A stretch of DNA of 64,000 nt from an uncultured Thermoplasmata archaeon (GCA_964602715.1 CAZRSB010000003.1:5783-69782); one strand, 5' to 3'. Shown: positions 1,067-28,390, counted from the stretch's first letter. Program-made: numbers and translations. The notes: a model not told the origin generated them from the sequence alone.

Positions 1067-1283
1067 ATTTAAAACTGACACTCCGATTTCTCTATAAACT
1101 CCAATATGAAGAAATCAAACAGAGAGAAGGACAAGCCACGTTCTTCTTCCCACGACCGCATATCATCGTGGGGAAAGAACTTTCACTTATACCGATTGCC
1201 CCGCCGATGTATAATCCTTTCACAAAAATCCGTAAACCATATATATTGTTAATTGAATATTTACCTACCAAATAAGTGAAAAA

Positions 1284-1658
1284 ATGGCAAAAGAAGGTTT
1301 GACGAACGAGGAAGAAGAATTGATAGACAGACTCATAAAAGCAGGTATTCAGAAGAACACGGCACGGACACTGGTTTTCGTTGCCAGCCAAGACGAAGCC
1401 AAAAGCAGAGAGATAGAGGATGCCACGGAGCTGAGACAGCCGGAGGTATCCATATCGATACAGGAACTGAGAGACCACGGATGGGTCAGTAGGCGGAAAA
1501 TCAAGAAAGAAGGAAGAGGAAGGCCAGTTCACGGTTATCAGCTAGATAAACCGATGGACGAGATAATCAAAGAGATAGAGGAGAAAGAAAGGGAACGTAT
1601 AGCAGAGATTGAGGAGAACTTAGAGGAAATCAAAGAACTCGTTGGATCATGCTTGTAG
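1284..1658 (+). CDS. winged-helix (TrmB/MarR-like) transcriptional regulator
   Basis: 124 aa. Helix-turn-helix with wing (TARTLVFVASQDEAKSREIEDATEL...GRGRPVHGYQL), followed by an acidic coiled-coil tail. Confidence 0.55.
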   Translation: MAKEGLTNEEEELIDRLIKAGIQKNTARTLVFVASQDEAKSREIEDATELRQPEVSISIQELRDHGWVSRRKIKKEGRGRPVHGYQLDKPMDEIIKEIEEKERERIAEIEENLEEIKELVGSCL

Positions 1659-1976
1659 ATCCAAAACAAAGAGCATTGTTTAGTCTTTCTAGAAATCTAC
1701 GTGATTAGTTATTTCAAAATCAGGCTAACATTGCCTTTTCCGTATAGTTTTTTTCTCTAACCCTACAGTGGGTATTAGGTACATTAAAAATTCTTGGATT
1801 ATGGGTTCAGTAGAAAACCTTCATTTTAGCCGATCTAAAGTTATAATAATCTTCTTCTTCGGTTTTATAACAACCTGTTTTTGCCCTAGATAGCCAATTA
1901 TTACTCCTTATTTAGAGGTTTTCTACAGAGCTAAAGAACAATAAATTTTTAATATAAAGTTAATAATGAATTACCA

Positions 1977-3074
1977 ATGCCAGAATATAAAAATCAACAT
2001 TATGTTCCACAGTATTATCTAAAGTTTTTTAATGACGGGAATAATAAGATTTGTGTTTATAATTTTGATAAAATGGATGAATTTATGGTACCAGTCTCTA
2101 ATGTATGTTCCAATACTTACTTTTATGGTGAAGGGAACATCGAAGAAAGTTTGAATGATTTTGAAACTCAATGCTCAGAATTGATTGAAAAAATAATTGA
2201 GAATGGTAATTTGAATAATATTAGCAATGAAGAGTACACTTTATTATTACAATTTATCCTATTCCAAAGAAGAAGAACAAAAAAGGCTAAAAACGAGATC
2301 GATGAAATTGTACAACACTTTTTCAGAGAGATTACAAAATATGGGGTTGAAAGCGGAGAATTAGACGAAAAAGCCTATGATTTAGCACAGAAAGGAAAAA
2401 TTAGACTAGAACATCCTATGTTTCAATACAGTCTATTATATGGTCCACTTTTTTACAGATTAATAGCCGATCTTGAACCTCTATTAATTCAAAATGAAAC
2501 AAAGAAGGACTTCGTTATAGGAGAACATCCCATAATATTTGATAACCCTTTATTTAAACATACGCAAATTCATGGTGGGATAGGACCGCTAAATAAAGGG
2601 TTGGTTATAATATGTCCATTAAGTACTGAATTTGCGATATTATTGTATGATCCTAAATCTTATAAGTTTGAGTTTGAAAATAGGTTGAAAATCAAAATTA
2701 AAGATCCTTTAGTGATTAAATCACTTAATATTTGTCAATATATCTATAGTGATTCAAATCTGTTCTATGGTCAATGTGGAAGAAAATATGAGATGAGAAC
2801 TATTCAAAAATATTTTAGAGAAGATAAACAAGAAGAAATGTCTAAACACATAGAATATACTCAATCGAATACTAAAAAATCGTTTTTACAATCAACTTCA
2901 AACCCTAGCGATTCTACACCTTATCTACCGTTCCTAAAAGAAAAAAACGGCGTCGAGTTTAAGTTAGAAAGAATAGAAGGTTTAAGTGAGGAAATCCATA
3001 AAGAAGTTTTAACGTATCTTGAAGATTTTTCTGAGTTATCAGAAGACGAGATTAAAAATCTATTCTTCACTTAA
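1977..3074 (+). CDS. DUF4238-family protein (candidate single-gene antiphage protein, Rst_DUF4238-like)
   Basis: N-terminus MPEYKNQHYVPQYYLKFF matches the HYVPQ(F/Y)YL(R/K)xF signature that opens DUF4238 (PF14022). Gene is very AT-rich relative to core genes. Confidence 0.6.
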   Translation: MPEYKNQHYVPQYYLKFFNDGNNKICVYNFDKMDEFMVPVSNVCSNTYFYGEGNIEESLNDFETQCSELIEKIIENGNLNNISNEEYTLLLQFILFQRRRTKKAKNEIDEIVQHFFREITKYGVESGELDEKAYDLAQKGKIRLEHPMFQYSLLYGPLFYRLIADLEPLLIQNETKKDFVIGEHPIIFDNPLFKHTQIHGGIGPLNKGLVIICPLSTEFAILLYDPKSYKFEFENRLKIKIKDPLVIKSLNICQYIYSDSNLFYGQCGRKYEMRTIQKYFREDKQEEMSKHIEYTQSNTKKSFLQSTSNPSDSTPYLPFLKEKNGVEFKLERIEGLSEEIHKEVLTYLEDFSELSEDEIKNLFFT

Positions 3075-3255
3075 ATTAATAATTCGACGGGTATTCTCTC
3101 CTGCATTTCGCGATCCTGCTACGGTCGATCATTCCGCTGTTCATTGCGATGGTGATGAAAGAGAAGAATATATGATGAAAAATTGATTACAACTGAGTCT
3201 AAACGATAATGTATCTCTAGATAATATAAAAAATAGTAATTAAATAAGAGGGTTT

Positions 3256-3408
3256 TTAAACATCGCTGATTCCATGCTTATGAGCACAGTCAACGTGAGC
3301 ATAGTCATCAATCTCTTCATAATAAGCTGGAGTTCCTTTTTCTCGTGTTTGACCTTCACCGCAGAATTTACAAGTCCTTCCCATTTTATATTGGAATGAC
3401 TTCTTCAT
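3256..3408 (-). CDS. small zinc-ribbon-like protein (50 aa), not in ORF track
   Basis: Manual translation: MKKSFQYKMGRTCKFCGEGQTREKGTPAYYEEIDDYAHVDCAHKHGISDV. Contains CxxC plus C/H ligands. Confidence 0.35.
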   Translation of the reverse strand: MKKSFQYKMGRTCKFCGEGQTREKGTPAYYEEIDDYAHVDCAHKHGISDV

Positions 3409-3746
3409 TCAAATAATTTTTGAGACCGTTGTTTTATGATGTCAAATTCATAATGAACCTCTACATTTTCTTTATAAAAAATTGGAACAGTATTTCATTT
3501 TCCACCTACTCAAACTCGCATCTCTCGCAATCCATCGATAGCTTCGGCACCGGGGTCTCCATCTTCAGTATGGCGAAAGAGAATAGTAAGGAGTAAGAGC
3601 ACCCAGAGGAGTACGAGTGAAAGAGATTTTTTCTGTGCTGTAATAGGTCATTAAATCACATCTGGGTCTACTGATAGTTTAGTTACCAACATCGAACAGG
3701 AAACCGTAATCATTATGAAACACCTATGTGTTTACATAGGGAGGAT

Positions 3747-4505
3747 ATGATGCGCAAGAACACTATGCTGACCTTGGAGGAGAGCGTGACAGAAACGGCC
3801 AAAACCATTGGTATAAATCTCAGTCAAGTGGCCGAGAAGGCCATAAAAGAGAGGATTCAAGAGATACTAAGACCAAGGGGAGAGGGGGTTGTTCAGATCC
3901 CCCAAACGGAAAAGGTGGTGCTAAAGAACGTCGGACATTTCCAAGGTGAGAGGGAATTTGAGTTTTCGAGCGGCGTGAATATCATAGTCGGGCCTAACGC
4001 TTCAGGAAAAACTACCATAATCGATTCGTTGAGAGCTGCCTATGGAGATGAAAGGTCTCCGACGAAGAACCAGTTCATGGAGGAAGAAGATGAGAGCTGG
4101 GTACGTGTCGTCCCTGAAAACGGAGCAATAAGAAGGAACGTTGGAGATGAGATCTCGTTCCCGCAGGGAGATACTTCTGAAAGGCTCGATCTAGAGAGAT
4201 TCGAGGGCTTAACCGAGGACGTTAAAGAGCGGCTGAAGTCTAGTGAAACTGAGAGAGCCCTATCAGAGGGAGATAGAGTTCTCAAGGAGATCATCCTCCA
4301 GTCGATGGCCACGAGAGGTAACGAATGTTATCTTAGAGATGGGACGTTGGCGATGTTAGATACAGAGATGAAAGAGATGGTTTTGGATTTCCTATATGAA
4401 CAGGAATTTCAGGTCATACTCACTTACCCTGAGAGAGGGGAGGAAGATAGCGTGATAAGTTCAGAAGATCACAACTTGATAGAATTGGGAGAGAGGAGGT
4501 CCTAA
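3747..4505 (+). CDS. compact ABC/SMC-head-like ATPase with N-terminal RHH-like segment
   Basis: GGAGG RBS at 3738-3742 precedes ATG 3747; the track ORF starts at 3726. Motifs: RHH-like MLTLEESVTETAKTIGINLSQVAEKAIKERI; Walker A GPNASGKTT in an EFEFSSGVNIIVGPNASGKTTIIDSL context typical of SMC/RecF/AAA_21 N-termini; signature-like LSEGDR; Walker-B-like TLAMLDTE; H-loop-like ILTYPE. No coiled coil. Confidence 0.55.
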   Translation: MMRKNTMLTLEESVTETAKTIGINLSQVAEKAIKERIQEILRPRGEGVVQIPQTEKVVLKNVGHFQGEREFEFSSGVNIIVGPNASGKTTIIDSLRAAYGDERSPTKNQFMEEEDESWVRVVPENGAIRRNVGDEISFPQGDTSERLDLERFEGLTEDVKERLKSSETERALSEGDRVLKEIILQSMATRGNECYLRDGTLAMLDTEMKEMVLDFLYEQEFQVILTYPERGEEDSVISSEDHNLIELGERRS

Positions 4506-4602
4506 AATATGTCAAAATTCATTCGCCCCCTATTAGAGGGTTTTAATTGTGAGAAAAAGTATTACATCCCCCGAGAGTTGAAAAGGAGGTATTGATGATC
4601 CC

Positions 4603-5814
4603 TTGGTGAAGATCATGTCAGGAAAAGAAAAACAGGGGTTACACGATCTTTCTGAGGAAGCGATGGACCATTTTATAGAAGGTGTGGAAAAGCAGGAAAA
4701 TGGTCTGTTAGAAGAGGCTATAGAAGAATATGAAAAAGTGATCTCTATCGAAACAAACGATGCTTCAACAAGGAATGATAACGTAGATGCTTCTCGTAGA
4801 AATGGAAAGTCCGGTGAGGAATCCCAGACCTATGATAAGGCCCCCTCTATCGAACCAAAACTCGTTAGAGTGTGGGGCATCAAGGGAAAGGCCCATTTTG
4901 AAAAGGAAGAGTACGATGAGGCCATAAGATGCTTGGACAGAGCCACTTTAATCGATCCCAAGTACACCAATATGTGGATCCATAAGGGAAATGCCTACTT
5001 TGGGAGGGGAGAGTATGATGAGGCTATTGAGTGCTACGATAAGGCTACTGCTATCGAAGCCAAGTATCCCGAATACGCTAAAGTCCTGAACAGCAAGGCC
5101 GAATATGCTAAAGGTTGGAATGGAAAGGGAAAAGCCTACCAAAAGAAAGGTAAGTATGATGAGGCTATTGAGTGCTACGATAAGGCTATCTCTATAGATG
5201 CTGGGGGCGGTATAACATGGGAGATCGATTCTGAGCATGCTATAGCGTGGAATAATAAAGGAAATGTATACAAGGAGAGAGGTGAGTACGATGAGGCTAT
5301 ACGATGCCTTGACAAAGCCACTTCCATCAAGCCAGAGTACACTAATGCGTGGATCAATAAAGGAGTTGCCTATGATGGAAAAGAAGAGTACGATGAGGCC
5401 ATACGATGCCATGAAAAAGCGATCTCTCTTGATTCTGAGAACGCTGGTGTATTGAATAACAAAGGATTGGCCTATGAGGGGAAGGAAGAGTATGAGAAGG
5501 CTATAGGCTTCTTTGACAAAGCCACATCCCTCGATCCTGAGTGTGTTGGAGCATGGATTAATAAAGGCAATGCCTACAGAAAGAAGGGAGAGTTTGACGA
5601 GGCGATCCGCTGTTGTGAGAAAGTTTTATCCCTAGATTCTACGGATCCTGTAGCTTCGGCCATAATCTGGGCTTCTAAAGGGATGGTACATCGGGATAAT
5701 GAGGAACTAACAGAGGCGAAAGAATGTTTTGAAAAGGCTCTTGATCTCTTTCCAGAGTTGTCAGAAGTTGAACCTGTTTTGTCTGAGGTCAAAGAAGAAC
5801 TAGCCGAAACGTGA
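4603..5814 (+). CDS. TPR-repeat protein
   Basis: About 9 tandem 34-aa repeats of the form W..KG.A.....EYDEAI.C.DKA..ID. Start codon uncertain (TTG 4603 or ATG 4615). Confidence 0.8.
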   Translation: MVKIMSGKEKQGLHDLSEEAMDHFIEGVEKQENGLLEEAIEEYEKVISIETNDASTRNDNVDASRRNGKSGEESQTYDKAPSIEPKLVRVWGIKGKAHFEKEEYDEAIRCLDRATLIDPKYTNMWIHKGNAYFGRGEYDEAIECYDKATAIEAKYPEYAKVLNSKAEYAKGWNGKGKAYQKKGKYDEAIECYDKAISIDAGGGITWEIDSEHAIAWNNKGNVYKERGEYDEAIRCLDKATSIKPEYTNAWINKGVAYDGKEEYDEAIRCHEKAISLDSENAGVLNNKGLAYEGKEEYEKAIGFFDKATSLDPECVGAWINKGNAYRKKGEFDEAIRCCEKVLSLDSTDPVASAIIWASKGMVHRDNEELTEAKECFEKALDLFPELSEVEPVLSEVKEELAET

Positions 5815-6129
5815 AGATTCAAAAACGTGGAGAGGAAAGAGAGGCTTAGATGTTAGGGGGGATTTTACCTTCCATCCAAAGCATCAGAAAGTCGAGCCCT
5901 CCCTGATAGTGATCTCTGTATTTCCTCCAAACATTTACTTGATAAATGTTTGAAAGTAAACAATATAGAGATTCTGGATGAATACATTACGTTGGCGGAC
6001 AAGAGATCAACAGGAGGCTCAACATGGTTAATCAGAAATAGCCTATAATGTCGTTGAGTCAATAAAAATTCATTCCCCAAAATGTTATATTCTTTTCATC
6101 ATTTTTACTCGAAAAAGAAGGTGAGTGGA

Positions 6130-7080
6130 ATGAAAAAATTGGAAAAGTATCTGAGAACCGATACACACCAAATGAAATTAAGTGGCTATGCCTACGACTC
6201 GGTGGGAGAGTTGATAGAAAATAAAAATATTTCGAGAGGGATATACGAAGGTTGGAAAAAAACGGGGTTGATCTCTGAACCTGAAGATTTCAAAGAAGAG
6301 GATGTTGGAATAACAAAATTGGAGACCGAGATTGATTTTCTCGCCACTTTGTCCAACTCAGACTTGAGTTGGAAGAATATAAGTGAATTTCTTTCTGAAC
6401 TCTCTAAGCCTTACCATTATGAGATTACTGGCTTATTTTATGATATAGGTAATGATAGGTTCATAGTCAAAGAAAATCTCTTGGAGGAAGAGTTGAAAAA
6501 AACTCGTGTTAGAGAATTTGAGGAGATTAATTTTGAAGACTTTTTACGCAAAAAAGAAACGAATTATGAGGATTTAAAAAAGTTAGAAACAATTGGCTTC
6601 CTCACAGATTTGCCCTCGAAGGATACAATCTTATCACTAGATGAACACAAAGAGGTCGATTTTCTCTGTGATTTATTGGAGAGCGGTTTAACTTGGGATA
6701 AAGTGAACACTCTTCTTGATAGGCTTGAGAAACCATACCAATACGATTCTAATGAACTATTATATAAGATTGAAAATGGAGAGTTCCTCACTAAAGGTGA
6801 TGTAATAGTAAATGAAATTAAAGACCAAATTATTTCTGAGGAGTACCTAAAAGAAAGAATAATGGATGAGCATGAGACTGAGATTATAGAAAGCACACTA
6901 CATAGTCTTCAGGAGAATCTCCAAGATTCAGAATTAGATTTAGTAGAAGACCAGCTAACTGAGGTTGGGGAAAAAATTATCTTTAGATGTAGGGAAATTC
7001 TAAATGAAAATATAGAGGAGATCTACGAAGAAAGAACCAAGGAGTTTGAATTAAGAAAGGATAGAAAGAGAGGTTTTTAA
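6130..7080 (+). CDS. hypothetical protein with internal ~55-aa tandem duplication
   Basis: Track ORF starts at 6082. ATG 6130 (MKKLEKY) follows an AGGTGA RBS. Two repeats: DFLATLSNSDLSWKNISEFLSELSKPYHYEITGLFYDIGNDRF and DFLCDLLESGLTWDKVNTLLDRLEKPYQYDSNELLYKIENGEF. Confidence 0.55.
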   Translation: MKKLEKYLRTDTHQMKLSGYAYDSVGELIENKNISRGIYEGWKKTGLISEPEDFKEEDVGITKLETEIDFLATLSNSDLSWKNISEFLSELSKPYHYEITGLFYDIGNDRFIVKENLLEEELKKTRVREFEEINFEDFLRKKETNYEDLKKLETIGFLTDLPSKDTILSLDEHKEVDFLCDLLESGLTWDKVNTLLDRLEKPYQYDSNELLYKIENGEFLTKGDVIVNEIKDQIISEEYLKERIMDEHETEIIESTLHSLQENLQDSELDLVEDQLTEVGEKIIFRCREILNENIEEIYEERTKEFELRKDRKRGF

Positions 7081-8195: not shown

Positions 8196-8489
8196 TCATC
8201 CTTTCCAGAAGCAATCATCACAAAAAACGCACCTCTTTCCTTCTAAATCTATTTTATATCGCTCTTTACACTCTTCAAAACCTTCTTGTCGCCCCTCTTC
8301 ACGGGCTTCTTCTATCTCTTTTTTGAGATCTAGACTATCTTTGATGATCTCCTCCAGCCAATCTTTTTTGCTCATATCTACTTCCTGGAGGAGTTCCTCC
8401 AATTCCTCTTTCAGTTCTCGATCAACTCGGAAATTAATAATCGGATTTTGCTTCTCATATTTCTCCCTGGAAGGCGCTTTATCAGCCAT
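8196..8489 (-). CDS. ribbon-helix-helix (CopG-like) domain protein with C-terminal Cys cluster
   Basis: PIINFRVDRELKEELEELLQEVDMSKKDWLEEIIKDSL resembles the RHH strand-helix-helix. C-terminus has CVFCDDC. Confidence 0.5.
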   Translation of the reverse strand: MADKAPSREKYEKQNPIINFRVDRELKEELEELLQEVDMSKKDWLEEIIKDSLDLKKEIEEAREEGRQEGFEECKERYKIDLEGKRCVFCDDCFWKG

Positions 8490-8532
8490 TATAATTATAA
8501 CATCACCTGCTCTATATAGTTTTTTTGTTTTC

Positions 8533-8606
8533 TACATAGTTTACTATATGGTTTTCCATACAGTTTTCCATATGGTTTGCTGTATGGTTTTCCATATCGT
8601 TTGCTA
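8533..8606. repeat. about 6 degenerate tandem copies of a 12-bp unit (TATGGTTTTCCA / TACAGTTTTCCA / TATGGTTTGCTG / TATCGTTTGCTA)
   Basis: Read directly in sequence. Lies 45-120 bp upstream of the RHH gene start (8489). The 8323..8697 ORF across it is a repeat artefact. Confidence 0.6.
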
Positions 8607-9003
8607 TGTGCAAAGGGAGATTTTCTCTTATACTCGATCATCTCCTATAAATTCTCTGGATAGCGATTTTAGTCAAGGCGTAGTAGGGGTACACTAAAAG
8701 GTGCACTATTCCTCGGAAACCGCCGCATGCGGTATATTATACCCCTTCATTTCACCCCTGCCGGCCCCAGGGGGGATGAGGGGTCCCCAAGGGACGAGAG
8801 GAAAAGATGGAAGGAGGGAGCAGGGAAGACAGAAGAAAAGCCGGAGAGGAAAGAAGTAGGAGTAAGAAGAGAGGGGCGAGGGACCGGCGGAAGAGGATGA
8901 GATAGCAGGCGGAGATGAGAAAAAAGTATAGGTAGAAATTAAGAAAGTTTATATTTTAGACGAGCACTCTTTATATGTCAGACAGACTGGAGGCATTAAA
9001 AAT

Positions 9004-9802: not shown

Positions 9803-12058
9803 TCAACCGTAATCTTCAAAATTTCTACTTATATAGGGGGCCTGCTCTTTGGGCTTCAAAGGTTCAGTCCTATTTCCTCTTCTAACAAAGAATTTTCCCT
9901 TTCCTTCTCTTTCTATAAACGAGGGGGTATCTGCATGTTCAACTTCTATTAAGCACACTTCCTTACCATTTACGGTAAAGAAAGAAACCTCAATATAATC
10001 ATTGAATTTTTCTTCCATATAGGAAGAAACTAGATTGAGTAGATGCCGTTGGAAAGCTTCTCTTTTTTCTTCCTCTTTGAACGTATCATAATCTTCTTCT
10101 AGACCGTAAACTTCTCCATCATTTTTAACGCCGATTAATAAAGTCCCTCCTTCTTCTGAGTTCAAAAATCCATTTATAGCTTTCATCGATTGATATTCCA
10201 CATCTTTTGTTCTCATACCTCTATCTTTTATATCCGTACGAAGGGTGGATTTAAACTCTAAATTTTGACCTTCACCTTCTTCGATCAACAGTTGGACATT
10301 TGTATCTTGTGCCCTTGAATCGATAACATTGAAAGTTATCCCATCCAGCTCTTCTTTGAGAAGTTCTTCGAATATCTTTATCCTCTTCTCGATAAATTCA
10401 TCGAGATATTTATGGCCCAATTCATCATCCCGGCACCAGTCAAGTATGGCCTTGGGGATTAGATGGGTTTCTAACACCTCTTCAAATCCTTCTCCATCAT
10501 AATCTTTAAGATAGTCAATTGGATTCTTGTCACTGATCTCTAGATTTGTAATCTGGGGAATATAAGCTATGTTCATAAGGCTGTCTTCGTCCAATTCATT
10601 GTCACCAGGATAATCCTCTACAAATCCACGTGGAAAGATATGATGTAGGTTTGGCTTATCTATTAAATGATAATATACTTCACTTATCACTGATCTATCG
10701 TAGTGTTTCCAGTCTTTTGGATCCTGGTTCGATAAGAGGGACAAAATAGCTCTAGAAAATCTCCCTCTATAACTGTATGATGATTCTCTCAGATCATTCC
10801 TATCCAGAATGAAAGGTTCAAATTCAAATTCTTCTCCCTGTTTGGCTTTCTCTAACTCTTCTAAATGATCATATCGAAGATGTCTTGTGTGCTTCAGTTT
10901 CTCTTCATTGTGGAACGAATAATACCAGAAGTACTTTTTTAGTAAATCATAATCAGGATCATCGTTTTCGTAGAAATAAGATGAGATAGTTATGTAGAAA
11001 TATCTGTATGGGATAAGATTTGGACCTTTCAAATGAAGATGGTTTTCAAAGAAGTCAAAAGTATCCCTAAAGGCTTCTTTCGCTCCATCCCATACCTCTT
11101 CTATTTGTTTTGCTGTGATATTATTTAGATAGGTGTCAGTGATATTGTGGACACTTGCATCTTCTATGTTCTGTCTAATTATCATCGCTAACATCTGAAG
11201 GTATGTTTGATACCCTATTCCGGAAAACTCACCTGGTGTATTGTCTTTGAAATCATCTATCATCTCTCTCAGATAGAAACCGCCCTCTGGATGCCCTTCT
11301 TGCCTAAACGTTTTAGCTACCACTATGTCAAATATGTTGAGAGGTTCACCTTCCTGATTTACTCTCTCAAATATTTCACAGACCTCATTGGTCTCTATTC
11401 CCTTCAATTCAATAAATGGGATCCTGTAGTTATCCATCACATGCTTTATCTTCCTCAAATTTTCCCTGTAAGGATGTTCGTAAGAAGTATACCCTAGATT
11501 ATGTATATTCCTTTCAATCTCATTATAGTTCTCCTTTATATCTTTCAGTTTTACGATCAGTCCCTTTTTGTATCTTTTCATCTTTGGGATGTTCTGCTTA
11601 ATCTCTCCGCCTTTGTCGTCTATCTCACCCCAACATAAGAAGCGTTTTTTATACTTTGAATCTTCCTCGTCTTCTTCCTCCTCCACCGTGAGGTCAACGT
11701 ACATAGTGGGCTCAAAGTCTCTTCTCCACTCCCCTTTAGCCCCATATAGGGAGGTTAGCAGGGCTGTTGTCCTTTGCTGCCCATCCAATATATATTTGAA
11801 GTCTGATTCTCTCTCAGAATCGTCGATCTCGTGTCCCCCGATCTTCCTATGTTTCTGCAGTTTTACATCTGTCTTCCAGACCAATATGCTCCCAATCGGG
11901 TAAAATTTATAGATACTGTCCCACAACTTTTTCACATTGTTCTTTTCCCAAATAATTTCCCTCTGGAAAGTGGGAATCTGATATTTTTTGTTCTTCAAAT
12001 TTTCAAGATATGTCCCTATAGAATCATGAGTGGGTTTGATTCTATCTGCATCTTCCAT
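9803..12058 (-). CDS. GmrSD-like type IV restriction-type nuclease (DUF262 + DUF1524) fused to a C-terminal AlbA_2/Schlafen-like domain
   Basis: N-terminal DUF262 motifs (QREIIW, ILDGQQRTTAL). Central His-Me-finger/DUF1524-like HHIFPRGF...NIAYIPQITNLEISDKNP. C-terminal EFKSTL...AINGFLNSEEGGTLLIGVKNDGEVYGLEED resembles the AlbA_2 (PF04326) core. Confidence 0.65.
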   Translation of the reverse strand: MEDADRIKPTHDSIGTYLENLKNKKYQIPTFQREIIWEKNNVKKLWDSIYKFYPIGSILVWKTDVKLQKHRKIGGHEIDDSERESDFKYILDGQQRTTALLTSLYGAKGEWRRDFEPTMYVDLTVEEEEDEEDSKYKKRFLCWGEIDDKGGEIKQNIPKMKRYKKGLIVKLKDIKENYNEIERNIHNLGYTSYEHPYRENLRKIKHVMDNYRIPFIELKGIETNEVCEIFERVNQEGEPLNIFDIVVAKTFRQEGHPEGGFYLREMIDDFKDNTPGEFSGIGYQTYLQMLAMIIRQNIEDASVHNITDTYLNNITAKQIEEVWDGAKEAFRDTFDFFENHLHLKGPNLIPYRYFYITISSYFYENDDPDYDLLKKYFWYYSFHNEEKLKHTRHLRYDHLEELEKAKQGEEFEFEPFILDRNDLRESSYSYRGRFSRAILSLLSNQDPKDWKHYDRSVISEVYYHLIDKPNLHHIFPRGFVEDYPGDNELDEDSLMNIAYIPQITNLEISDKNPIDYLKDYDGEGFEEVLETHLIPKAILDWCRDDELGHKYLDEFIEKRIKIFEELLKEELDGITFNVIDSRAQDTNVQLLIEEGEGQNLEFKSTLRTDIKDRGMRTKDVEYQSMKAINGFLNSEEGGTLLIGVKNDGEVYGLEEDYDTFKEEEKREAFQRHLLNLVSSYMEEKFNDYIEVSFFTVNGKEVCLIEVEHADTPSFIEREGKGKFFVRRGNRTEPLKPKEQAPYISRNFEDYG

Positions 12059-12573: not shown

Positions 12574-15500
12574 TCAGTATCTACTTTCTATACCGTCTGG
12601 TGGGCGTGGTCCTTCCAACGGACTCTGATAGGGGCTTTCCCCTTCCAACTCTGTATCTCCTCCTGGGTTTATCCCGTTCAGGCCTTGATTGATCCATTTA
12701 TAGGCCACTCCTTCCTTTTTTTTGACAAGTGTATCAGTTTTCTCCTCTAGTTCATTCAGGCATCGTCGCACCTGTCTCTTTGACAAGTCGATCTTCTTTG
12801 CAATCGTCTTAGTGGTAAACTCTTCTCTTTTTTTCGCCTCTGAAAAGACTTTCTTCATCCCATCACTCCAAATATTTATGACCCCTGGTTGTGTCTCGTG
12901 AGGGACCCAATCAGGTAAAGTGTTCGTTTCGACATACACAACCGCTCCTTGTCCGTCTCTCCCGAAGCGCATTACTGCTTGAAGAGTGGCATTATGAGTC
13001 ATATGCCGATAGATTTTATTCCCAAAATCCCCATAGTCAGTATCCTCCCCTCTCCCTTCTCTTTCTACTCCCTCGTTTTGGTAGGCCCCCCATTTTTTGA
13101 TGTAATCGTCTCCGCAGTGATTCGATCCGATAACCACACCCAATCGCTTTTTTTTAAGCTTATTTGATCCTTTCAGATTACCGTAGTGAGTGTGATCATC
13201 GACGAATGTGAGCAATCCTTCTTCTTGGTATTGGTCCTTTGCTTTTTTCGTGGTGATCATAGAGGGCCTCTGATCATATAGTTCCGTTAGCTTTTGAAGA
13301 AGGAGCCGATCCGACTCGATGTTGACGTAATTCCCTGAGGAGTAGGGTTTCATGTGCTCAGTCGTGCGGATAAAATGATGATTCAATCCTTCCTTGAGGT
13401 ATTTCTTTCTTTCACTGTCATCCAATACCTGACGATGTTCTAATCTTGCACCACCAAGAGAAATTTCCCACATCTCTTTAATGGGAGTTCCATCTAATGC
13501 AATGATTTGCCTGCAGTAGTACAGATTCGGGGGTTTCATGACGTGAATTCTGTTAGTCGCTCGGTTATGAAGAACGGTGAGATGCTTATTTTTATCAAAA
13601 TAGCGCTTACGCTCGTATCCGTTGACCGTATTATCTTCATCTCCCACCATTTCAAGGAGGGCATGAATCACTGTAGGGGTAAGTGAATGTGTTTCTTCTG
13701 AGTCAAGGACCCATGTTGGGGTTTTCTCCTTCATTCCATCGAGATATTCGAGTGCTTTTTCCCGCCTTTTTTCATCATCCCTGTTTTCCAAAAGATCGGT
13801 AATGTTTTGGAAAGGGATCCTATCTTCGTCCTGAAGGTAATCCGATATGGCTTTTTTTAATTTTTCCGCTGAAAATTTTTCCTCAAAGGCATCCTCGGGA
13901 AATTCATCGAATACTACTGTTCTCTTTTTCGTAACTTTGGGAAGATGAGCACATAGATAATGCCCTATCAGAACATCGTAATATTCCGGATCGAAGTTCC
14001 AAGCCATGCTGTACGGACATGCCCCATCCTTTTGACACGGAGGAGAGCAGTATTTATGGATCTGTTGTGGGGTAAGCCCTCGTTCATACCAATCTTTTAC
14101 CTTATCTTTCCACTCTTCACCGTGTTCCCCTGTTGCTGTTGGACAACTCTGAAAAAAAGAAGGTAGCCGTTTATATGAGAGGTTCTCATCCTCGCACCAC
14201 TCTTCTATCTGTTTATACTGCTCTTTATGTCCCCGATCGGTAAGAACCGTTAGGGGTGTGTGTGTTTCTTTAGCGGCTTTGATTATACCGTTGCTCTTCC
14301 CTAACGAGGGTAGTGCATCGATGAGGATGTTTTCTTGGCTTTCTAACGCATCTACAAGGCAGTCTAACGTTTTTTTCCGTGCTTTTTCCACATGCCTTCT
14401 CCGTGGTCTGTCATCTATGAGGATGGGTTCAACAGGTAAATCACTTACATCATCAGGCTTGTTCACTGAAACTAATAGATCTGGTTTTGGAGATCCTTTT
14501 TCGAGGATGGGAATATCATATCCTCCCTCACTAAGTCCCTCTACGGCTTTCCAGAATGTCCTCCCGTCGAGTTTTTCAGCAGGAGTTGATATGAGCCCCA
14601 CTCCCAGCGCATACGCCTTGAGAGGACCACCGCCCTTATCTACTTTGTTATCTATGAACCGATTTTCTCCTTCAGGGATTGCACAAGATTTTCCGCTTTC
14701 ACTCTCCCGCCAAGAGGGGTTGAAGGTGATTTCGGATGATCTGTTCGAGGTGTCAAACTCGTCGGAAGCGTACTTTTTGACGATCTCTTTTACATCGATC
14801 CTATTAACAGCATCTACTACATCACACCAGTTATCGGTAGTTTCTAAATCAGCCAGGTTAATGTTCTTTTTACGACGCTCTTCCCGTCTCTCTTTCCGAT
14901 CTTCGGTAATTTTTTTTCGCCGTTTTTCTTTTTCCTTCTCCTCTTCAACCCAAGTCTTAAGGGCAACTTTCCAGTCCCCTTCGTAGAAATCTGGAAAGAG
15001 ATCTGAAATCATTTTGTCGAGTGGTCTATGGTTTTCGGGAACTGTGGTAAAATCTACACACCATTCTTTGACCTTTGAAATCAATTCGCTGTCTACGTCT
15101 TCCTTGCGAATCAACTTGTACTCCACGGTGGCAGTATCTATTGGATGGACCACGCCATCTATTTCTTTGTGTAAAGAGAGAGGGCCTTTATATTGCCGAT
15201 TCTTATTGTTAATCGCATCCATTTTACAGATTTCTTCTGCTCCATCAACGCTTTCAAGAACTTCAATCCTCTTTTTTTTAATCCAGTCATTCATGCGGTC
15301 CGTCAATTCATCGAATATTTTTCCCTTGCTGTTCAAATCGCTAATAGGTGCAGTGACGCCTGGAGCAGTGAATATGTAAACTCCTCCAACAGAATCCAAT
15401 AGAAAGACGTGATCCTCTCCTACCAACCTCTCGAATTCTTTTATCATCTTCTCTATCACTTTTGAGAATATTTTTTTCTTCTCAGAAGGAAGGGAGCGCT

Positions 15501-15903
15501 CTTTATGGGCATCCTTTAGGTCAATATCAACGAATAAAGCAGTGGCATAGATTTCATCATAATTAGGCAGAGGTGATTCCCCTCCCTCAAAATATGTGCC
15601 CCCATCGGTACTTTTGCATAATTTCTCTTTCAGAACATCTTTTTTCTGGTAGTTGAGCACGGCGTAATAGTGTCTGTCGATCTGATCTGCAAGTTCTCCA
15701 GCATCACCTCCCAAACTGTAAGGGCGGCCCCGATACTGATATCCTTCTTCGTAGCTTTCGATTTTCTTAGCCGGTCTTTTGTGGTACCACCCATAGTGAT
15801 CACTGATGCCAAAAGTAGTAGTCTCTTCCATCCCTCCTAGAGCTTTGAAAATCGGGATCAATTTTTGGTAATACTTCCTGTGCTCACTCCTTTTCCGTGT
15901 CAT
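12574..15903 (-). CDS. replication initiator-like protein: AEP primase-polymerase-like N-domain, P-loop NTPase, C-terminal wHTH
   Basis: AEP motif I-like ALFVDIDLKD and motif II-like DSVGGVYIF. Walker A-like LPSLGKSNG and Walker B VVFDEFPE. C-terminal helix-turn-helix KTIAKKIDLSKRQVRRCLNELEEK. 1109 aa. Confidence 0.55.
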   Translation of the reverse strand: MTRKRSEHRKYYQKLIPIFKALGGMEETTTFGISDHYGWYHKRPAKKIESYEEGYQYRGRPYSLGGDAGELADQIDRHYYAVLNYQKKDVLKEKLCKSTDGGTYFEGGESPLPNYDEIYATALFVDIDLKDAHKERSLPSEKKKIFSKVIEKMIKEFERLVGEDHVFLLDSVGGVYIFTAPGVTAPISDLNSKGKIFDELTDRMNDWIKKKRIEVLESVDGAEEICKMDAINNKNRQYKGPLSLHKEIDGVVHPIDTATVEYKLIRKEDVDSELISKVKEWCVDFTTVPENHRPLDKMISDLFPDFYEGDWKVALKTWVEEEKEKEKRRKKITEDRKERREERRKKNINLADLETTDNWCDVVDAVNRIDVKEIVKKYASDEFDTSNRSSEITFNPSWRESESGKSCAIPEGENRFIDNKVDKGGGPLKAYALGVGLISTPAEKLDGRTFWKAVEGLSEGGYDIPILEKGSPKPDLLVSVNKPDDVSDLPVEPILIDDRPRRRHVEKARKKTLDCLVDALESQENILIDALPSLGKSNGIIKAAKETHTPLTVLTDRGHKEQYKQIEEWCEDENLSYKRLPSFFQSCPTATGEHGEEWKDKVKDWYERGLTPQQIHKYCSPPCQKDGACPYSMAWNFDPEYYDVLIGHYLCAHLPKVTKKRTVVFDEFPEDAFEEKFSAEKLKKAISDYLQDEDRIPFQNITDLLENRDDEKRREKALEYLDGMKEKTPTWVLDSEETHSLTPTVIHALLEMVGDEDNTVNGYERKRYFDKNKHLTVLHNRATNRIHVMKPPNLYYCRQIIALDGTPIKEMWEISLGGARLEHRQVLDDSERKKYLKEGLNHHFIRTTEHMKPYSSGNYVNIESDRLLLQKLTELYDQRPSMITTKKAKDQYQEEGLLTFVDDHTHYGNLKGSNKLKKKRLGVVIGSNHCGDDYIKKWGAYQNEGVEREGRGEDTDYGDFGNKIYRHMTHNATLQAVMRFGRDGQGAVVYVETNTLPDWVPHETQPGVINIWSDGMKKVFSEAKKREEFTTKTIAKKIDLSKRQVRRCLNELEEKTDTLVKKKEGVAYKWINQGLNGINPGGDTELEGESPYQSPLEGPRPPDGIESRY

Positions 15904-17761: not shown

Positions 17762-18997
17762 CTAATCAACTCTATCTTTCAATACTTTCTTGAACTCTTC
17801 CATTATCTCTTCGTTTTCGTTCATCAACTTTACCATGTCCATGAAATCCTGCATATCATCTAACACTTCTGGCTTTTCTTTTGCAAGTTGGGTAAAATCT
17901 TTGCTTACATCTTCTTTATCCTCTTCTATCTCTTGAGCGGCTTCCACACTTAGCGCTTGTCCACATCGCTGACAAAATTTAGCCTCGGGGGAGTTCTTTT
18001 CTTCACATCTAGGACAGTCTATAGGTGATAATTCGGCGTTGTCATCCTCTTCTTCCTCCTTTATCCCATGAATCTTGTCATATGCGTCATCTATATCTCT
18101 TCCGCTGAGATGCACATATTTAGAAGGTTGATCACTACCTTGGACCCATCCAAACCATTCACACATCATCGCCTCTGTGAATCTGGGGGCTAAAAATGTT
18201 GCTCTACTGTGTCGAAAATGATGTGGATTTACAGGCTTATTGATTTCTGCCTTTTCCGCTGTAGTGTTTAATGCCTTGAGTAAAGTTCTATATTCGGCTT
18301 TCTTTCCGTTATTTTTTGTACCAATATTGACCCATAACGGAGCACTATCCTCATCCCTTTTTGGATGTGAATTTAACCACTCTCTCACATCTGGAATACT
18401 GCTTACTAACGGGAGCCTTCTCGGGCCTGTCTTTCCGTTTATCACAATTTTCAGTCCGTGTTCACGATCCTCAAAATCCCCAATGGTCAGATCAATAATC
18501 TCACCGATTCTAGCGCCTGTTTCCCAGAGAAGGCTGATTAAACACCGATCTCTCGGGTTGCTAGCGTGATTTATCAACTTACTCACATCATCTTCAGTCA
18601 GCATTTTTTTCGGTAACTTACCGTTATTCTTTTTCTCTGTAGTATTGATCCAATCTACTTTATCTGGATATACCCCATCATTCAACCACTTATAGACTAC
18701 TTTTAGAACTATCTTATACTGTCTTTTAGTGGCATCAGCAATATCTCTAGAGTTTACCCAGGCTACAATCTCTTCTATTTGTTCTCTTTCAGCGCCTTTC
18801 AAGTCAAAATCGACATGTTCTAAGATTTTTTTCAAATGTGAGAGAAGTTTTTGTAAGTGAGCATCTGAATAGTCCTGTAGCATAAGATGCCTATGATATT
18901 CTTCTAAGAGTCCTTTGTTTCCTTCAGTTACTTCGTCATTCTCTTTTACCTTTTCGAGGATTTGCTCATGCCGCCCCTCATAGTCTAGGAGAGTCAT
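17762..18997 (-). CDS. int: tyrosine recombinase/integrase with C-terminal zinc ribbon
   Basis: SAM-like N-domain. Catalytic residues in TGARIGEI, HHFRHSRAT and the downstream Y region. C-terminal CPRCEEKNSPEAKFCQRCG. Confidence 0.8.
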   Translation of the reverse strand: MTLLDYEGRHEQILEKVKENDEVTEGNKGLLEEYHRHLMLQDYSDAHLQKLLSHLKKILEHVDFDLKGAEREQIEEIVAWVNSRDIADATKRQYKIVLKVVYKWLNDGVYPDKVDWINTTEKKNNGKLPKKMLTEDDVSKLINHASNPRDRCLISLLWETGARIGEIIDLTIGDFEDREHGLKIVINGKTGPRRLPLVSSIPDVREWLNSHPKRDEDSAPLWVNIGTKNNGKKAEYRTLLKALNTTAEKAEINKPVNPHHFRHSRATFLAPRFTEAMMCEWFGWVQGSDQPSKYVHLSGRDIDDAYDKIHGIKEEEEDDNAELSPIDCPRCEEKNSPEAKFCQRCGQALSVEAAQEIEEDKEDVSKDFTQLAKEKPEVLDDMQDFMDMVKLMNENEEIMEEFKKVLKDRVD

Positions 18998-26650: not shown

Positions 26651-26652
26651 AT

Positions 26653-26963: not shown

Positions 26964-26985
26964 AAAAGTTAGTTAGACCAACCTC

Positions 26986-26995: not shown

Positions 26996-27119
26996 TCAAT
27001 GATTAGGGTCTTCGTTTCCATATCTAAAACAGAAGCAAATGAGAAAATAGAACTTTTGTTAATATAGTGATCACGTGGGTAAGTTATTAATAGGGGAGGA
27101 TATTATGAACTGAACCACT

Positions 27120-27398
27120 ATGAAGAAACCACGCAAGATTAAGGATTACTGTCCATCATGTGATACCCATACTGAAATGGAAGTTAGCAGAGGAAAAAAT
27201 AGACCAGGAAGTGAGCTCAGAAAAGGTCAGAGAAGATTTAAAAGGGTGACCTCGGGCTACGGTGGATTTCCTTGGTCTAAACCTTCTGGAGCCGGTAAAC
27301 CAGTCAAAAGAGTATACTTGAAATACACTTGTACTGATTGCGGTAAAACATGGCAGAAGAAGTGCAAAAGGGCCGGAAGATTTGAATTTGAGGAATAA
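27120..27398 (+). CDS. rpl44e: 50S ribosomal protein L44e
   Basis: 92 aa. CPSCDTH...CTDCGK zinc ribbon. C-terminal KCKRAGRFEFEE is typical of L44e. Confidence 0.9.
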   Translation: MKKPRKIKDYCPSCDTHTEMEVSRGKNRPGSELRKGQRRFKRVTSGYGGFPWSKPSGAGKPVKRVYLKYTCTDCGKTWQKKCKRAGRFEFEE

Positions 27399-27413
27399 TG
27401 GAGTGTTGAAAAC

Positions 27414-27605
27414 ATGGATCAAGAGAAAAAATTCGTAAAAATAAAATGCTCCGACTGTGAAAATGAGCAGATAACTTTCAAAAACGTCTCGTCTGAAGTC
27501 GAATGTTTAGTCTGTGGAGCATTTCTAGCCAGACCAACAGGAGGATTCTCTGATTTTGACGGAGAGATTATAGAAGAAATCGGAGCATCCGATGAGGTTG
27601 AATGA
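27414..27605 (+). CDS. rps27e: 30S ribosomal protein S27e
   Basis: FVKIKCSDCENEQITF...CLVCGAFLARPTGG. Conserved position after L44e. Confidence 0.9.
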   Translation: MDQEKKFVKIKCSDCENEQITFKNVSSEVECLVCGAFLARPTGGFSDFDGEIIEEIGASDEVE

Positions 27606-28390
27606 TGTCTGAAAAAGAAGAGTATGAATGGCCCGGAGAAGGGGAACTTGTAATCTGCGATGTGAAAACCGTAAAAGACTTTGGAGCCTTCCTAGAGTTG
27701 GAGGAATACAGTCAAAAAGAAGGTTTTGTCCATATATCCGAAATTTCTTCAGGATGGGTAAAACGAATTCAGGACCATATACAGGAAGGGGAGAAAAGAG
27801 TCTGTAAAGTTCTCAGAGTAGATAAGAATAAAGGACATATTGATCTTTCACTCAAGCAAGTTAATGATCATCAAAAGAGAGAAAAGCTACAGGCATGGAA
27901 AAACCAGAAAAAAGCCAACAAATTGCTCAAGATTGTAGCTGAAAGATATAATAAAAATTTGGAAGAATGTTACGATGAATTTGGTTTTGAACTAAGTGAT
28001 GAATTCGGTAGTTTGTATAAATCATTTGAGAAAATATCACTGAATCCAGACATATTAGAAGAAAAAGGATTCGAAGGTGAATGGATAAAGCATTTCAAAG
28101 ATGTAGCCTCTGAAAACATTTCGCCTCCGTATGTTAGTATAACAGGTTATGCAGAAATATCGTCACCTAAACCAGAAGGTGTATCTGACATAAAAGAGGC
28201 TCTGAAAATTTTTGAGGATACCGACGATTCTTTTGTGGATGTTAATTATGTGGCGGCACCTAAATACAGTATAGAAATTAAATCACAAGATTATAAGAGC
28301 GCTGAGCAAGTGTTTAAAGATCAATCCAAAAAAGTGATAAAAAAAATAGAAGAAAAGGGTGGCAAAGGGAAATTTTATAGAAAGGGTTGA
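27602..28390 (+). CDS. eif2a: translation initiation factor aIF2 alpha subunit
   Basis: S1 domain GELVICDVKTVKDFGAFLEL...GFVHISEISSGWVKRIQD. Conserved L44e-S27e-aIF2alpha operon. Confidence 0.9.
   Translation: MMSEKEEYEWPGEGELVICDVKTVKDFGAFLELEEYSQKEGFVHISEISSGWVKRIQDHIQEGEKRVCKVLRVDKNKGHIDLSLKQVNDHQKREKLQAWKNQKKANKLLKIVAERYNKNLEECYDEFGFELSDEFGSLYKSFEKISLNPDILEEKGFEGEWIKHFKDVASENISPPYVSITGYAEISSPKPEGVSDIKEALKIFEDTDDSFVDVNYVAAPKYSIEIKSQDYKSAEQVFKDQSKKVIKKIEEKGGKGKFYRKG

Follow-up and report, generated by a model that had tools for sequence, protein, structure and literature searches.

The window, a stretch of 64,000 nt, comes from the chromosome of a Thermoplasmatota archaeon of a haloalkaliphilic, soda-lake lineage (e.g. 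Ca. Natronoplasma, Ca. Saliniplasma). The locus studied here comprises genes for a wHTH regulator, a DUF4238 protein, an RHH-ATPase and a TPR protein, together with a 50-aa ORF carrying a CxxC...HxxCxH signature (Zn-ORF). All five ORFs reported in an earlier note on this DNA were found at or near the coordinates claimed for them, and the domain assignments were upheld by Pfam and NCBIfam searches. The short gaps of the proposed cluster were not borne out: they measure 318 nt (wHTH/DUF4238), 672 nt (DUF4238/ATPase, containing the opposite-strand Zn-ORF) and 109 nt (ATPase/TPR). Inspection of the sequence located TATA-like elements separately before the DUF4238, ATPase and TPR genes, which makes a single operon, that is, one transcription unit across the five genes, unlikely. 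The features are collected in Table 1.

Table 1. Features of the locus and its surroundings, in positions of the window
Feature	Position	Strand	Basis or remark
wHTH promoter/leader, conserved	1205..1283	+	window/L011 DNA alignment
wHTH, MreA/TrmBL2-type regulator	1284-1658	+	124 aa; Pfam MarR_2/TrmB; NCBIfam MreA NF053756
Variable cargo slot	1700..3689		low GC; unrelated or absent in close relatives
DUF4238 protein	1977-3074	+	365 aa; Pfam PF14022
50-aa CxxC...HxxCxH ORF (Zn-ORF)	3256-3408	-	ORF call; also called by independent gene callers on identical contigs
ATPase leader, conserved	3690..3746	+	holds inverted repeat, then GGAGG
Inverted repeat CCTATGT-GTTT-ACATAGG, candidate RHH operator	3723-3740	+	paired boxes kept across lineages
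RHH (CcdA-like) + ABC/SMC-head ATPase	ORF 3726-4505, likely gene 3747..4505	+	Pfam CcdA, AAA_23, SMC_N
TPR-only protein, ~8 repeats	ORF 4603-5814, likely gene 4615..5814	+	Pfam TPR_1, 8 stretches
GmrSD_N + Schlafen AlbA_2 protein, type IV restriction-like	9803-12058	-	Pfam; PADLOC HEC-05 / PDC-M55C
Tyrosine integrase with zinc ribbon	17762..18997	-	Pfam Phage_integrase 1.4e-18
L44e-S27e-aIF2alpha operon	27117..28390	+	tblastx vs L100; Pfam EIF_2_alpha

The wHTH protein scored 123.4 bits against the NCBIfam MreA model (cut-off 100) and has no sensor domain within its 124 aa. In this respect, and in its high conservation, wide distribution and housekeeping neighbourhood, it resembles MreA of Methanosarcina acetivorans and TrmBL2 of the Thermococcales (PMC3419521), which are likewise short TrmB-like winged helices without a sensor domain. 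The family is phylum-wide: species-representative genomes gave at least 592 matches. Of 80 species loci, 45 have aIF2alpha divergent from the wHTH gene and <1.5 kb away (L44e-S27e-aIF2alpha operon); relatives at 74-80% identity occupy housekeeping contexts, and none of the 80 loci has a DUF4238, ATPase or Zn-ORF gene nearby. By these comparisons the wHTH gene is a core-type, housekeeping-type regulator gene. It differs from the MreA/TrmBL2 systems in two ways. The host is a non-methanogen, therefore the regulon must differ from that of MreA and the function is not transferable. Island DNA occupies the place of the canonical neighbours: RpiA-topoI is absent from the window, a recombinase fragment lies at the synteny break, and the family's ancestral neighbour, the L44e-S27e-aIF2alpha operon, is located ~25 kb away. 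The window copy falls in a subclade apart from copies in the canonical context, and the samples with the window's contig also contained another copy, 82% identical, in a TFIIB/Alba context. The gene may be the core-gene ortholog moved from its original place, or a paralog on a mobile element.

The start of the ATPase gene is more likely the ATG at 3747 than position 3726, as judged from the choice of the gene callers, a GGAGG 5-6 nt upstream and the M(R/K)KNTML beginning of all homologues. Residues 10-47 of the 252-aa protein match Pfam CcdA with 26.5 bits (cut-off 22.4). In the AF2 model this RHH domain contains helices at 12-21 and 25-41 at low confidence, as expected for an RHH domain modelled as a monomer. 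The whole model (pLDDT 73) returned the SMC head, Rad50 and ABC NBDs as top Foldseek matches, and the motifs GPNASGKTT (Walker A), LSEGD (LSGGQ-like signature), CYLRD (Walker B Asp) and LAMLD (D-loop) are likewise shared with SMC/Rad50/RecF- and transporter-type ABC heads. Unlike SMC/Rad50 proper, the protein has no coiled-coil insertion between the head halves, which are joined by ~40 poorly modelled residues; it also lacks the H-loop His, the region reading QVILTYP, and the catalytic Glu, with which Gly199 aligns when compared to a canonical NBD (hhalign). Of 10 close family members, 9 have G, K or D at the latter position, and P0133 alone has E. Its motifs predict that the ABC head can bind ATP and dimerise even so, and the protein probably works not as a motor but as a nucleotide switch that binds DNA. 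The family is tiny: 5.8 billion proteins yielded just 6 clusters, and 1.84 billion yielded 7 representatives below E = 1e-30. A search of IMG/VR viral contigs gave no match; to our knowledge, no family with a fusion of RHH and ABC head has been described. Assignment to a Gabija-, Septu- or Lamassu-type system was rejected: the GajA, PtuA and LmuB matches span the P-loop only (~residues 62-120) and there is no partner gene.

Paired CCTATGT-type boxes, 11-12 nt apart, lie just 5' of the ATPase ATG in every lineage examined and are conserved across ATPase identities from 40% to 100%. The box 8-mer occurs only twice in the 64-kb window, and no conserved boxes were found before the cargo genes, only at the ATPase's own promoter. 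Their presence there in every lineage suggests that the ATPase is probably autoregulated, with its RHH domain bound to the boxes as a candidate operator; the N-terminal RHH of the ATPase is CcdA-like, and RHH repressors such as CcdA, MetJ and Arc also have tandem or inverted boxes at their own promoters.

Three close lineages, including L011 and L106, have a TPR gene 3' of the ATPase gene (57-58% identity in L011). That of the window likely starts at the ATG at 4615, contains a 102-nt repeat family and encodes a protein scoring above the Pfam TPR-S cut-off. In three distant lineages (L003, L005, L113) the neighbour is instead an AAA+ gene matching IetA at 2e-38 to 6e-39, which recalls the Iet (IetA-IetS) system; in contrast to that system, no IetS-type protease was recognised beside these AAA+ genes, and the window has no such AAA+ gene. 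An EVE-AAA_5 protein is encoded near the ATPase relative in L003. Overall, ATPase relatives at 40-60% identity reside in unrelated elements without wHTH, DUF4238 or TPR genes, some of them MCM-bearing and single-strand-oriented, and nothing except the ATPase is common to these distant relatives or MCM elements and the window.

Comparison with close relatives revealed where the locus is conserved and where it is not. The DNA of the window and of contig L011 is near-identical starting ~75 nt 5' of the wHTH ATG and unrelated farther upstream, the wHTH leader marking the left edge of their homology, which is restricted to the wHTH gene with its promoter and to a segment that begins 55 nt before the ATPase gene and extends over the TPR gene. 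Against L011, L108 and L111 alike, homology ends 20-40 nt past the wHTH stop and restarts ~55 nt before the ATPase ATG. The intervening slot, from the wHTH stop to the ATPase promoter, was found in six states among relatives with ATPases 75-100% identical. It is empty in L108, where the ATPase follows the wHTH gene directly across a 196-nt gap; it contains DUF4238 and the Zn-ORF in the window, ApeA (PADLOC PDC-S58, 2.8e-61) and PDDEXK_4 (PDC-S26) in L011, two unrelated ORFs between the wHTH 3' end and the ATPase in L111 (98% identity to the window in the ATPase N-terminus), and further ORF sets, different from each other and from the others, in L109 and L104. The recognisable defence-type cargo consists of DUF4238, ApeA and PDDEXK_4. 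Since no defence-domain match was obtained in L109, L111 and L104, three of the five filled states, the term defence applies to part of the cargo only. The relatives are short metagenomic contigs (about ten) from a few soda-lake samples, and the sampling is therefore narrow.

The slot is also compositionally distinct, with a GC content of 0.29-0.32 vs 0.44-0.47 in the flanks (window, L011, L109 and L111); in the window the values are 0.316 and, for the flanking genes, 0.46-0.47. Across relatives the cargo genes lie on either strand and have their own promoters. In L011 the cargo is bounded on the right by 64 nt that resemble the wHTH 3' end (~83% identity), a degenerate copy that reads as an insertion footprint. 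Neither att repeats nor a footprint could be demonstrated in the window, where repeats of the wHTH 3' end are not distinguishable from background, and no integrase was found inside any slot examined.

The DUF4238 protein of the window matches PF14022 over model positions 1-277 of 281 (E = 2e-37, 129.6 bits, cut-off 27), and a separate TATA-like element, TTTTTAATATAAAG, precedes its gene by 25-38 nt. The family includes a single-gene anti-phage defence validated against T7, the protection having been shown only for an E. coli P2-hotspot DUF4238 protein (PMC9122126). Like that system (Rousset et al., 2022; DefenseFinder 'DUF4238'), the window gene stands alone, encodes PF14022 in full length and lies in a variable hotspot, and by analogy it may be anti-viral. 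It differs in being archaeal, ~25-33% identical to any relative found (26-33% for the nearest), and without a PADLOC v2.0.0 match at E <= 0.01. These relatives occur in changing contexts, including haloarchaeal plasmids: the neighbours in L114/L115 differ from those on the Haloprofundus and Halobacterium plasmids, no partner gene is conserved, and no solved structure was found among the sequence relatives. The Zn-ORF had no homologue in 100+ loci or viral contigs, no family match in Pfam, PADLOC or NCBIfam searches and is not conserved beside other DUF4238 genes; it is a putative orphan zinc-ribbon gene, either part of the cargo or a leftover.

That the locus sits in a defence island, as had been proposed, agrees with the validated DUF4238 family, with the GmrSD/AlbA_2 gene (confirmed downstream, as claimed) and tyrosine integrase on one side, and with a PLD-type nuclease and an MmeI-like type IIG enzyme encoded just upstream of the window on an identical contig. 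Conserved flanks, differing inserts and an empty site in close relatives, by which core-flanked hotspots are recognised, were all observed. The core-gene-flanked hotspots of Pseudomonas aeruginosa (PMC10250203) and E. coli (PMC10121019) and those of P2/P4 phages (PMC9122126) share with this locus the conserved flanking genes, the fixed left junction, the empty-site variant and compositionally foreign cargo, here in part recognisably conflict-related, that differs among close relatives. They differ in that the host here is an archaeon, an MreA-type regulator and an RHH-ATPase take the place of the bacterial marker genes as flanks, the slot has no integrase, and the basis is about ten metagenomic contigs vs hundreds of genomes.

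The earlier note had interpreted the five genes as a possible composite defence locus, to be checked by synteny across relatives, with scattering of the genes as the outcome that would speak against it. That outcome is what was found. The five genes are scattered in relatives, and no more than three of them, those for the wHTH, ATPase and TPR proteins, remain linked, within a single narrow lineage. The locus is no single defence machine of five components. One co-evolving composite defence locus, for which the adjacency of the genes, the common strand of four of the five and the island setting could be cited, is highly improbable given the lack of co-occurrence in all 80 wHTH loci and in any ATPase relative at <=60% identity, the swapping or loss of DUF4238 and the Zn-ORF where ATPases are 75-98% identical, the wide gaps and a cargo composition unlike the flanks. 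Somewhat better placed, yet still doubtful, is a modular system in which the RHH-ATPase and a partner (TPR or IetA-like AAA+) serve as a sensor/regulator core that regulates or works with whichever effector occupies the slot, an arrangement known from systems with exchangeable effectors, or form a defence system of their own. It would account for the conflict-type genes beside the ATPase in every lineage (DUF4238, ApeA/PDDEXK_4, EVE-AAA_5, IetA-like AAA+), the ATPase-TPR pairing in three lineages, the TPR-S score and the P-loop matches to the defence ABC ATPases GajA, PtuA, LmuB and MADS3. However, those PADLOC matches span only ~50 residues around Walker A, the ATPase is present even when the slot is empty, both ApeA and DUF4238 have been described as systems of one autonomous gene, and distant relatives have only the ATPase in common with the window; the strand and promoters of the cargo and the confinement of the boxes to the ATPase promoter also argue against it.

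The most serious competitor, possible although less probable than the insertion hotspot, holds that the wHTH, ATPase and TPR genes, together with everything as far as the integrase (~1.2-19 kb), are the backbone of one integrated element, and that the slot is its internal hotspot, as in P2/P4 phages, and not a site of the chromosome. The integrase itself, the occurrence of ATPase relatives in MCM-bearing elements, the distinct wHTH subclade and the loss of the RpiA-topoI neighbours with a recombinase fragment at the break are consistent with such an element. Against it, no att repeats were found in the window and tRNA-Gly is not duplicated, IMG/VR viral contigs gave no ATPase match, the ATPase is all that is common to the window and the MCM elements, and no more than 26 kb separates the wHTH gene from aIF2alpha, its ancestral neighbour.

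We therefore favour an insertion hotspot in which two conserved units, the MreA/TrmBL2-type wHTH gene on the left and the RHH-ABC-ATPase gene followed by the TPR gene on the right, frame a slot. Foreign low-GC DNA with self-contained conflict genes would be gained, lost and swapped just past the wHTH stop codon, either by recombination between the conserved flanks or by integration at the wHTH 3' end; the cargo in the window would be the DUF4238 gene with its own promoter and the orphan Zn-ORF, and the RHH domain of the ATPase would most likely act on the paired boxes over its own promoter. With a probability of roughly three in four, the locus is an insertion hotspot of a defence island; features of this kind are known, and this one would be an example from a little-studied archaeal lineage.

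Comparison with its closest relatives identified this locus as an insertion hotspot with exchangeable cargo and not as a conserved multi-gene system. The earlier note had grouped five ORFs (encoding a wHTH regulator, a DUF4238 protein, a zinc-ribbon protein on the opposite strand, an RHH-ATPase and a TPR protein) into a possible composite defense unit. This proposal did not withstand the comparison: the slot, i.e. the variable DNA at about 1700–3689 between the wHTH stop codon and the ATPase leader, is swapped or empty in close relatives, and the wHTH and ATPase genes are found elsewhere without the other genes. The domain labels given to the five ORFs were essentially correct, as evidenced by matches to Pfam PF14022, NCBIfam MreA and other families. 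The gaps between the genes, described as short, proved not to be tight: 318 nt separate wHTH from DUF4238, 672 nt (enclosing the opposite-strand ORF) separate DUF4238 from the ATPase, and 109 nt separate the ATPase from the TPR gene.

Features of the window, followed by the slot contents of contigs carrying close ATPase relatives
Feature or contig	Position	Strand	Description
wHTH, 124 aa	1284–1658	+	domain label confirmed
DUF4238 protein, 365 aa	1977–3074	+	PF14022, E = 2e-37
CxxC/HxxCxH ORF (Zn-ORF), 50 aa	3256–3408	-
RHH-ATPase	3726–4505 as listed	+	CcdA-like RHH fused to AAA_23/SMC_N ATPase; start most likely 3747
TPR protein	4603/4615–5814	+	about eight TPR units
332-aa ORF	6082–7080	+
97-aa ORF	8196–8489	-
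12-nt tandem array	8527–8610
GmrSD-like gene	9803–12058	-	GmrSD_N + Schlafen/AlbA_2
1109-aa ORF	12574–15903	-
Tyrosine integrase	17762–18997
Archaeal SRP RNA	26652–26964		tRNA-Gly also in the window
Recombinase fragment, 183 aa	33960–34511	+
L108			ATPase 83% identical to the window's; slot empty, 196 nt from wHTH stop to ATPase ATG
L111			ATPase 98% identical (N-terminus); wHTH 3′ end, 172-aa ORF (209–724, -; R-N-S-L-A-H motif, Rx4H, HEPN-like), 530-aa zinc-ribbon ORF (970–2559, +), ATPase
L109			ATPase 75% identical to the window's; two ORFs without annotation, 332 and 360 aa (249–2286, -)
L104			ATPase 84% identical to the window's; start of a secreted protein, minus strand
L106			ATPase 76% identical; 154 nt upstream of the ATPase on the contig, slot outside view; ATPase-TPR pair present

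The relatives were found on short metagenomic contigs from few samples; L104, L106, L108, L109 and L111 belong to one soda-lake sediment metagenome, and other related contigs to a few further samples. In the contig L011, whose ATPase and wHTH are 81–82% and 80% identical to those of the window, homology is limited to two stretches. The first begins about 75 nt ahead of the wHTH ATG and ends 20–40 nt beyond its stop; the second begins about 55 nt ahead of the ATPase ATG, spans the ATPase and enters the TPR gene (57–58% identical). The slot between them is occupied, on the minus strand, by PDDEXK_4 (PADLOC PDC-S26) and ApeA HEPN (PDC-S58, 2.8e-61) genes, which replace DUF4238 and the Zn-ORF. The empty-slot contig L108 also has an upstream 110-aa ORF in common with the window. 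The window, L011 and L111 have the same left slot junction and differing right junctions, and the GC content is 29–32% in slot DNA and 44–47% in the flanks. The fixed flanks, the alternative cargoes, the empty site and the GC contrast among close relatives make up the anatomy of an insertion hotspot. To the right, the cargo of L011 ends at a degenerate repeat, 64 nt long, of the wHTH 3′ end, stop codon included; it is the footprint of an insertion at the 3′ end of that gene. When such a remnant was sought in the window, local alignment gave a best score of 33, a value reached by 5 of 500 shuffles, and an equally good match to the wHTH 3′ end was found elsewhere in the slot; a remnant is therefore not claimed for the window. 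Three cargo sets (L109, L111 and L104) are without annotation, and neither the two L109 ORFs nor the 172-aa and 530-aa ORFs of L111 gave a Pfam or PADLOC match. By their position, the two L111 ORFs are candidate new defense genes.

The gene that forms the left flank is of core type and not a defense accessory. The wHTH protein scored 123 bits against NCBIfam MreA (curated cut-off 100), a family of sensor-less TrmB/TrmBL2-like global regulators described in Methanosarcina (PMC3419521). Homologs of 124 aa and 60–84% identity are present in MAGs labeled Thermoplasmatota, Ca. Natronoplasma and Ca. Saliniplasma, and at least 592 matches were obtained in species-representative genomes of Thermoplasmata, Methanomassiliicoccales, DHVE2 and others. 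Among the best 80 loci of these matches, 45 have aIF2alpha less than 1.5 kb upstream of the wHTH gene on the opposite strand; at 74–80% wHTH identity the context is enolase-Usp-wHTH-RpiA-L40e-topoisomerase I-1467 aa-QueH-aIF2alpha-S27e-L44e. The window is archaeal, and a Methanosarcina origin, suggested by the MreA match, was rejected, since the names of the homologs and the 80 loci point to Thermoplasmatota. The synteny check that the earlier note had called for revealed no co-occurrence at these loci: relatives of DUF4238, the ATPase or the Zn-ORF were found in none of the 80 loci, and weak TPR matches in three. L44e-S27e-aIF2alpha-QueH-1470 aa is retained in the window at 27.1–33.7 kb, and synteny comparison with the wHTH relatives showed RpiA, topoisomerase I and enolase to be absent from it. 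A recombinase fragment, comprising only a tyrosine-recombinase catalytic domain (Pfam 6.7e-48), is placed exactly at the synteny break of the relatives, between the 1470-aa gene and topoisomerase I-L40e-RpiA-wHTH. The window wHTH falls in a subclade separate from the canonical-context copies, and the same samples contain a copy of 82% identity that has a TFIIB/Alba neighborhood; the window gene may be either a displaced ortholog or a paralog. Within the family (homologous proteins P0012–P0059), the C-terminal residue is almost always aromatic (...SAF/SVF/SIY); the ending is ...SCL in the window's subclade, ...ACF in the L108 empty-slot copy and ...PCF in the displaced L011 remnant.

The defense-island setting put forward in the earlier note was borne out, and the GmrSD-like gene that it placed downstream is present. 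On L001, a contig identical to the window and reaching further left, the stretch directly left of the window start (L001 1–6005) encodes a TPR-containing, MmeI-like type IIG methyltransferase/endonuclease (>1055 aa) and a PLDc_2/NgoFVII-like (PLD-type) nuclease, both upstream of the wHTH, so that defense genes stand on both sides of the latter. Together with the GmrSD_N/AlbA_2 gene and the integrase downstream, these genes demonstrate that the setting is real. No Pfam, NCBIfam or PADLOC match was obtained for the 332-aa and 1109-aa island ORFs. A search for att sites, as direct repeats around the island or a duplicated tRNA-Gly 3′ end, yielded no match longer than 15 nt, a length expected by chance. 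The 12-nt tandem array (GTTTTCCATATG-like, about 7 units, given by the repeat finder as 5 overlapping 36-nt copies at 12-nt spacing) stands 40–120 nt upstream of the 97-aa ORF, whose N-terminus is RHH/CopG-like by look (IINFRVDRELKEELEELL) and whose C-terminus contains CxxCxxC; the two may represent an iteron or operator plus a small regulator.

The DUF4238 cargo of the window adds a divergent new member to a known defense family. Strong T7 resistance was conferred by one DUF4238-domain protein, encoded in a P2-prophage hotspot of E. coli, its molecular function being unknown then (PMC9122126), and DefenseFinder-based surveys now list "DUF4238" as a system by name. The window copy spans the whole Pfam model. 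Its nearest relatives, at 26–33% identity, have the invariant N-terminus MPEYKNQHYVPQ in common, and more distant ones are located on plasmids of Halobacterium, Haloprofundus, Haloarcula and Natribaculum, amid transposases, HEPN and restriction genes; the neighbors of DUF4238 relatives are different each time. No solved structure was found by sequence for any DUF4238 relative. A TATA-like element (TTTTTAATATAAAG), read straight from the sequence, lies 25–38 nt upstream of the DUF4238 ATG, and we infer both the promoters at the locus and an antiviral activity of the window copy. The Zn-ORF, which is not conserved beside other DUF4238 genes and has no relatives in the 80 wHTH loci or in IMG/VR, is treated as an orphan, putative gene; it was rejected as a DUF4238 partner, showing no similarity to small ORFs adjoining haloarchaeal DUF4238 genes. 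A viral origin was also rejected, since IMG/VR holds no relatives of the ATPase, the Zn-ORF or the window's DUF4238 clade; one weak DUF4238 match occurs in an Oscillospiraceae phage. Structured RNA was discounted for the wHTH-ATPase leader (z = -0.18) and for a 41-nt imperfect inverted repeat at 1780–1956 (z = -1.0), and Rfam at E <= 1 returned a chance miRNA match only.

The ATPase of the right flank belongs to a tiny family that moves independently, with only six 90%-identity clusters among 5.8 billion proteins and seven proteins below E = 1e-30 in a profile search of 1.84 billion representatives. At 60% (L003/L004) and 48% (L005–L010) identity, its distant relatives reside in single-orientation elements that carry an MCM helicase and DUF2201 (L005–L010) or an EVE-AAA_5 protein (L003), and in all of them the ATPase is followed by an AAA+ gene. 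In the contig L113, the ATPase gene (about 50% identity) is oriented divergently from a cluster in which the AAA+ gene adjoins a VWA protein and the Mre11-like and Rad50-like genes. The AAA+ neighbors, of about 500 aa (L003 8071–9576, L005 10849–12405, L113 5077–6585), are mutually 35–57% identical, and those of L003 and L005, which were the ones scanned, matched PADLOC IetA at 2e-38 to 6e-39; no IetS-type protease was recognized beside the three genes, and no IetA-like AAA+ gene was found in the window. The ATPase is the only gene common to the window and the MCM/AAA+ elements.

The RHH-ABC fusion constitutes a small undescribed family made of ordinary components. The ATPase possesses a Walker A motif (GPNASGKTT), an LSGGQ-like signature (LSEGD), the Walker B Asp and a D-loop (LAMLD), and it lacks the H-loop His (QVILTYP). 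Profile alignment to a canonical ABC transporter ATPase of the same window placed Gly199 at the position of the catalytic Glu, which is G, K or D in nine of ten close family members; the tenth (P0133) has E. The AF2 model built on 16 sequences (pLDDT 73, ATPase core confident) matched SMC head, Rad50 and ABC NBD folds, and the protein has no coiled coil; an earlier model from 6 sequences (pLDDT 38) was unusable.

Two CCTATGT-type boxes, 11–12 nt apart, precede the ATPase start in every lineage (40–100% protein identity). They form an inverted repeat in the window (3723–3740), L011, L104, L108, L109, L111 and the related contig L112, a direct repeat in L003 and L005, and in L113, where the variant is CATATGT, a perfect palindrome of 18 nt. 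In L003 and L005 (14–21 kb loci), the 7-mer has at most two further occurrences outside the ATPase leader; the whole 64 kb window contains the 8-mer two times. The RHH domain would bind the paired boxes and repress the ATPase's own promoter, and the degenerate ABC head would serve as an ATP-binding dimerization switch, not a motor. Beyond the ATPase stop, 50 nt are partly conserved in four lineages (window 4506–4560 and the equivalents in L011, L003 and L005), with a C-rich pattern, TGAAAnAT.TC.A..TTCA.....CCCC, followed by a TATA-like box; this segment may serve as terminator, promoter or second operator. Because of the TATA-like element and the C-rich stretch, the downstream gene, whether TPR or AAA+, probably has its own promoter.

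According to the leading rival to the hotspot reading, the ATPase-TPR pair acts as a regulator or sensor in conflict modules. The pair is kept in L011 and L106, and the ATPase has an AAA+ gene as its neighbor in the more distant elements; we consider this idea unlikely. In a broader proposal, the RHH-degenerate-ABC protein and the partner that it can exchange (TPR or IetA-like AAA+) would form a so far undescribed nucleotide-sensing regulator or defense module of archaea, heading conflict-gene arrays and gating their expression or the acquisition of neighboring cargo; this is likewise improbable in our estimate.

In its organization, this hotspot resembles the core-flanked defense hotspots of bacteria (PMC10250203, PMC10121019) and those of P2/P4 (PMC9122126), but differs from them in its archaeal host and its flanking genes. 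The mapping of defense hotspots that lie between conserved genes has centered on bacteria and their phages, and the locus provides a clear Thermoplasmatota case from soda lakes, in which the site is either empty or filled by one of at least five alternative cargoes. "Guilt by slot" is a cheap route to new archaeal defense candidates, such as the unannotated ORFs of L109, L111 and L104. DUF4238, validated only in E. coli, is now seen in an archaeal defense-type setting and on haloarchaeal plasmids. For annotation, the case cautions against taking "defense-flavored" domains in a co-directional row as evidence of a composite system. A conserved operator-like element accompanies the RHH-ABC protein, whose head probably binds ATP and barely hydrolyzes it; the protein may be a nucleotide-dependent repressor. 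If the nucleotide-sensing proposal is true, the right "flank" would be an active player and not a passive landmark.
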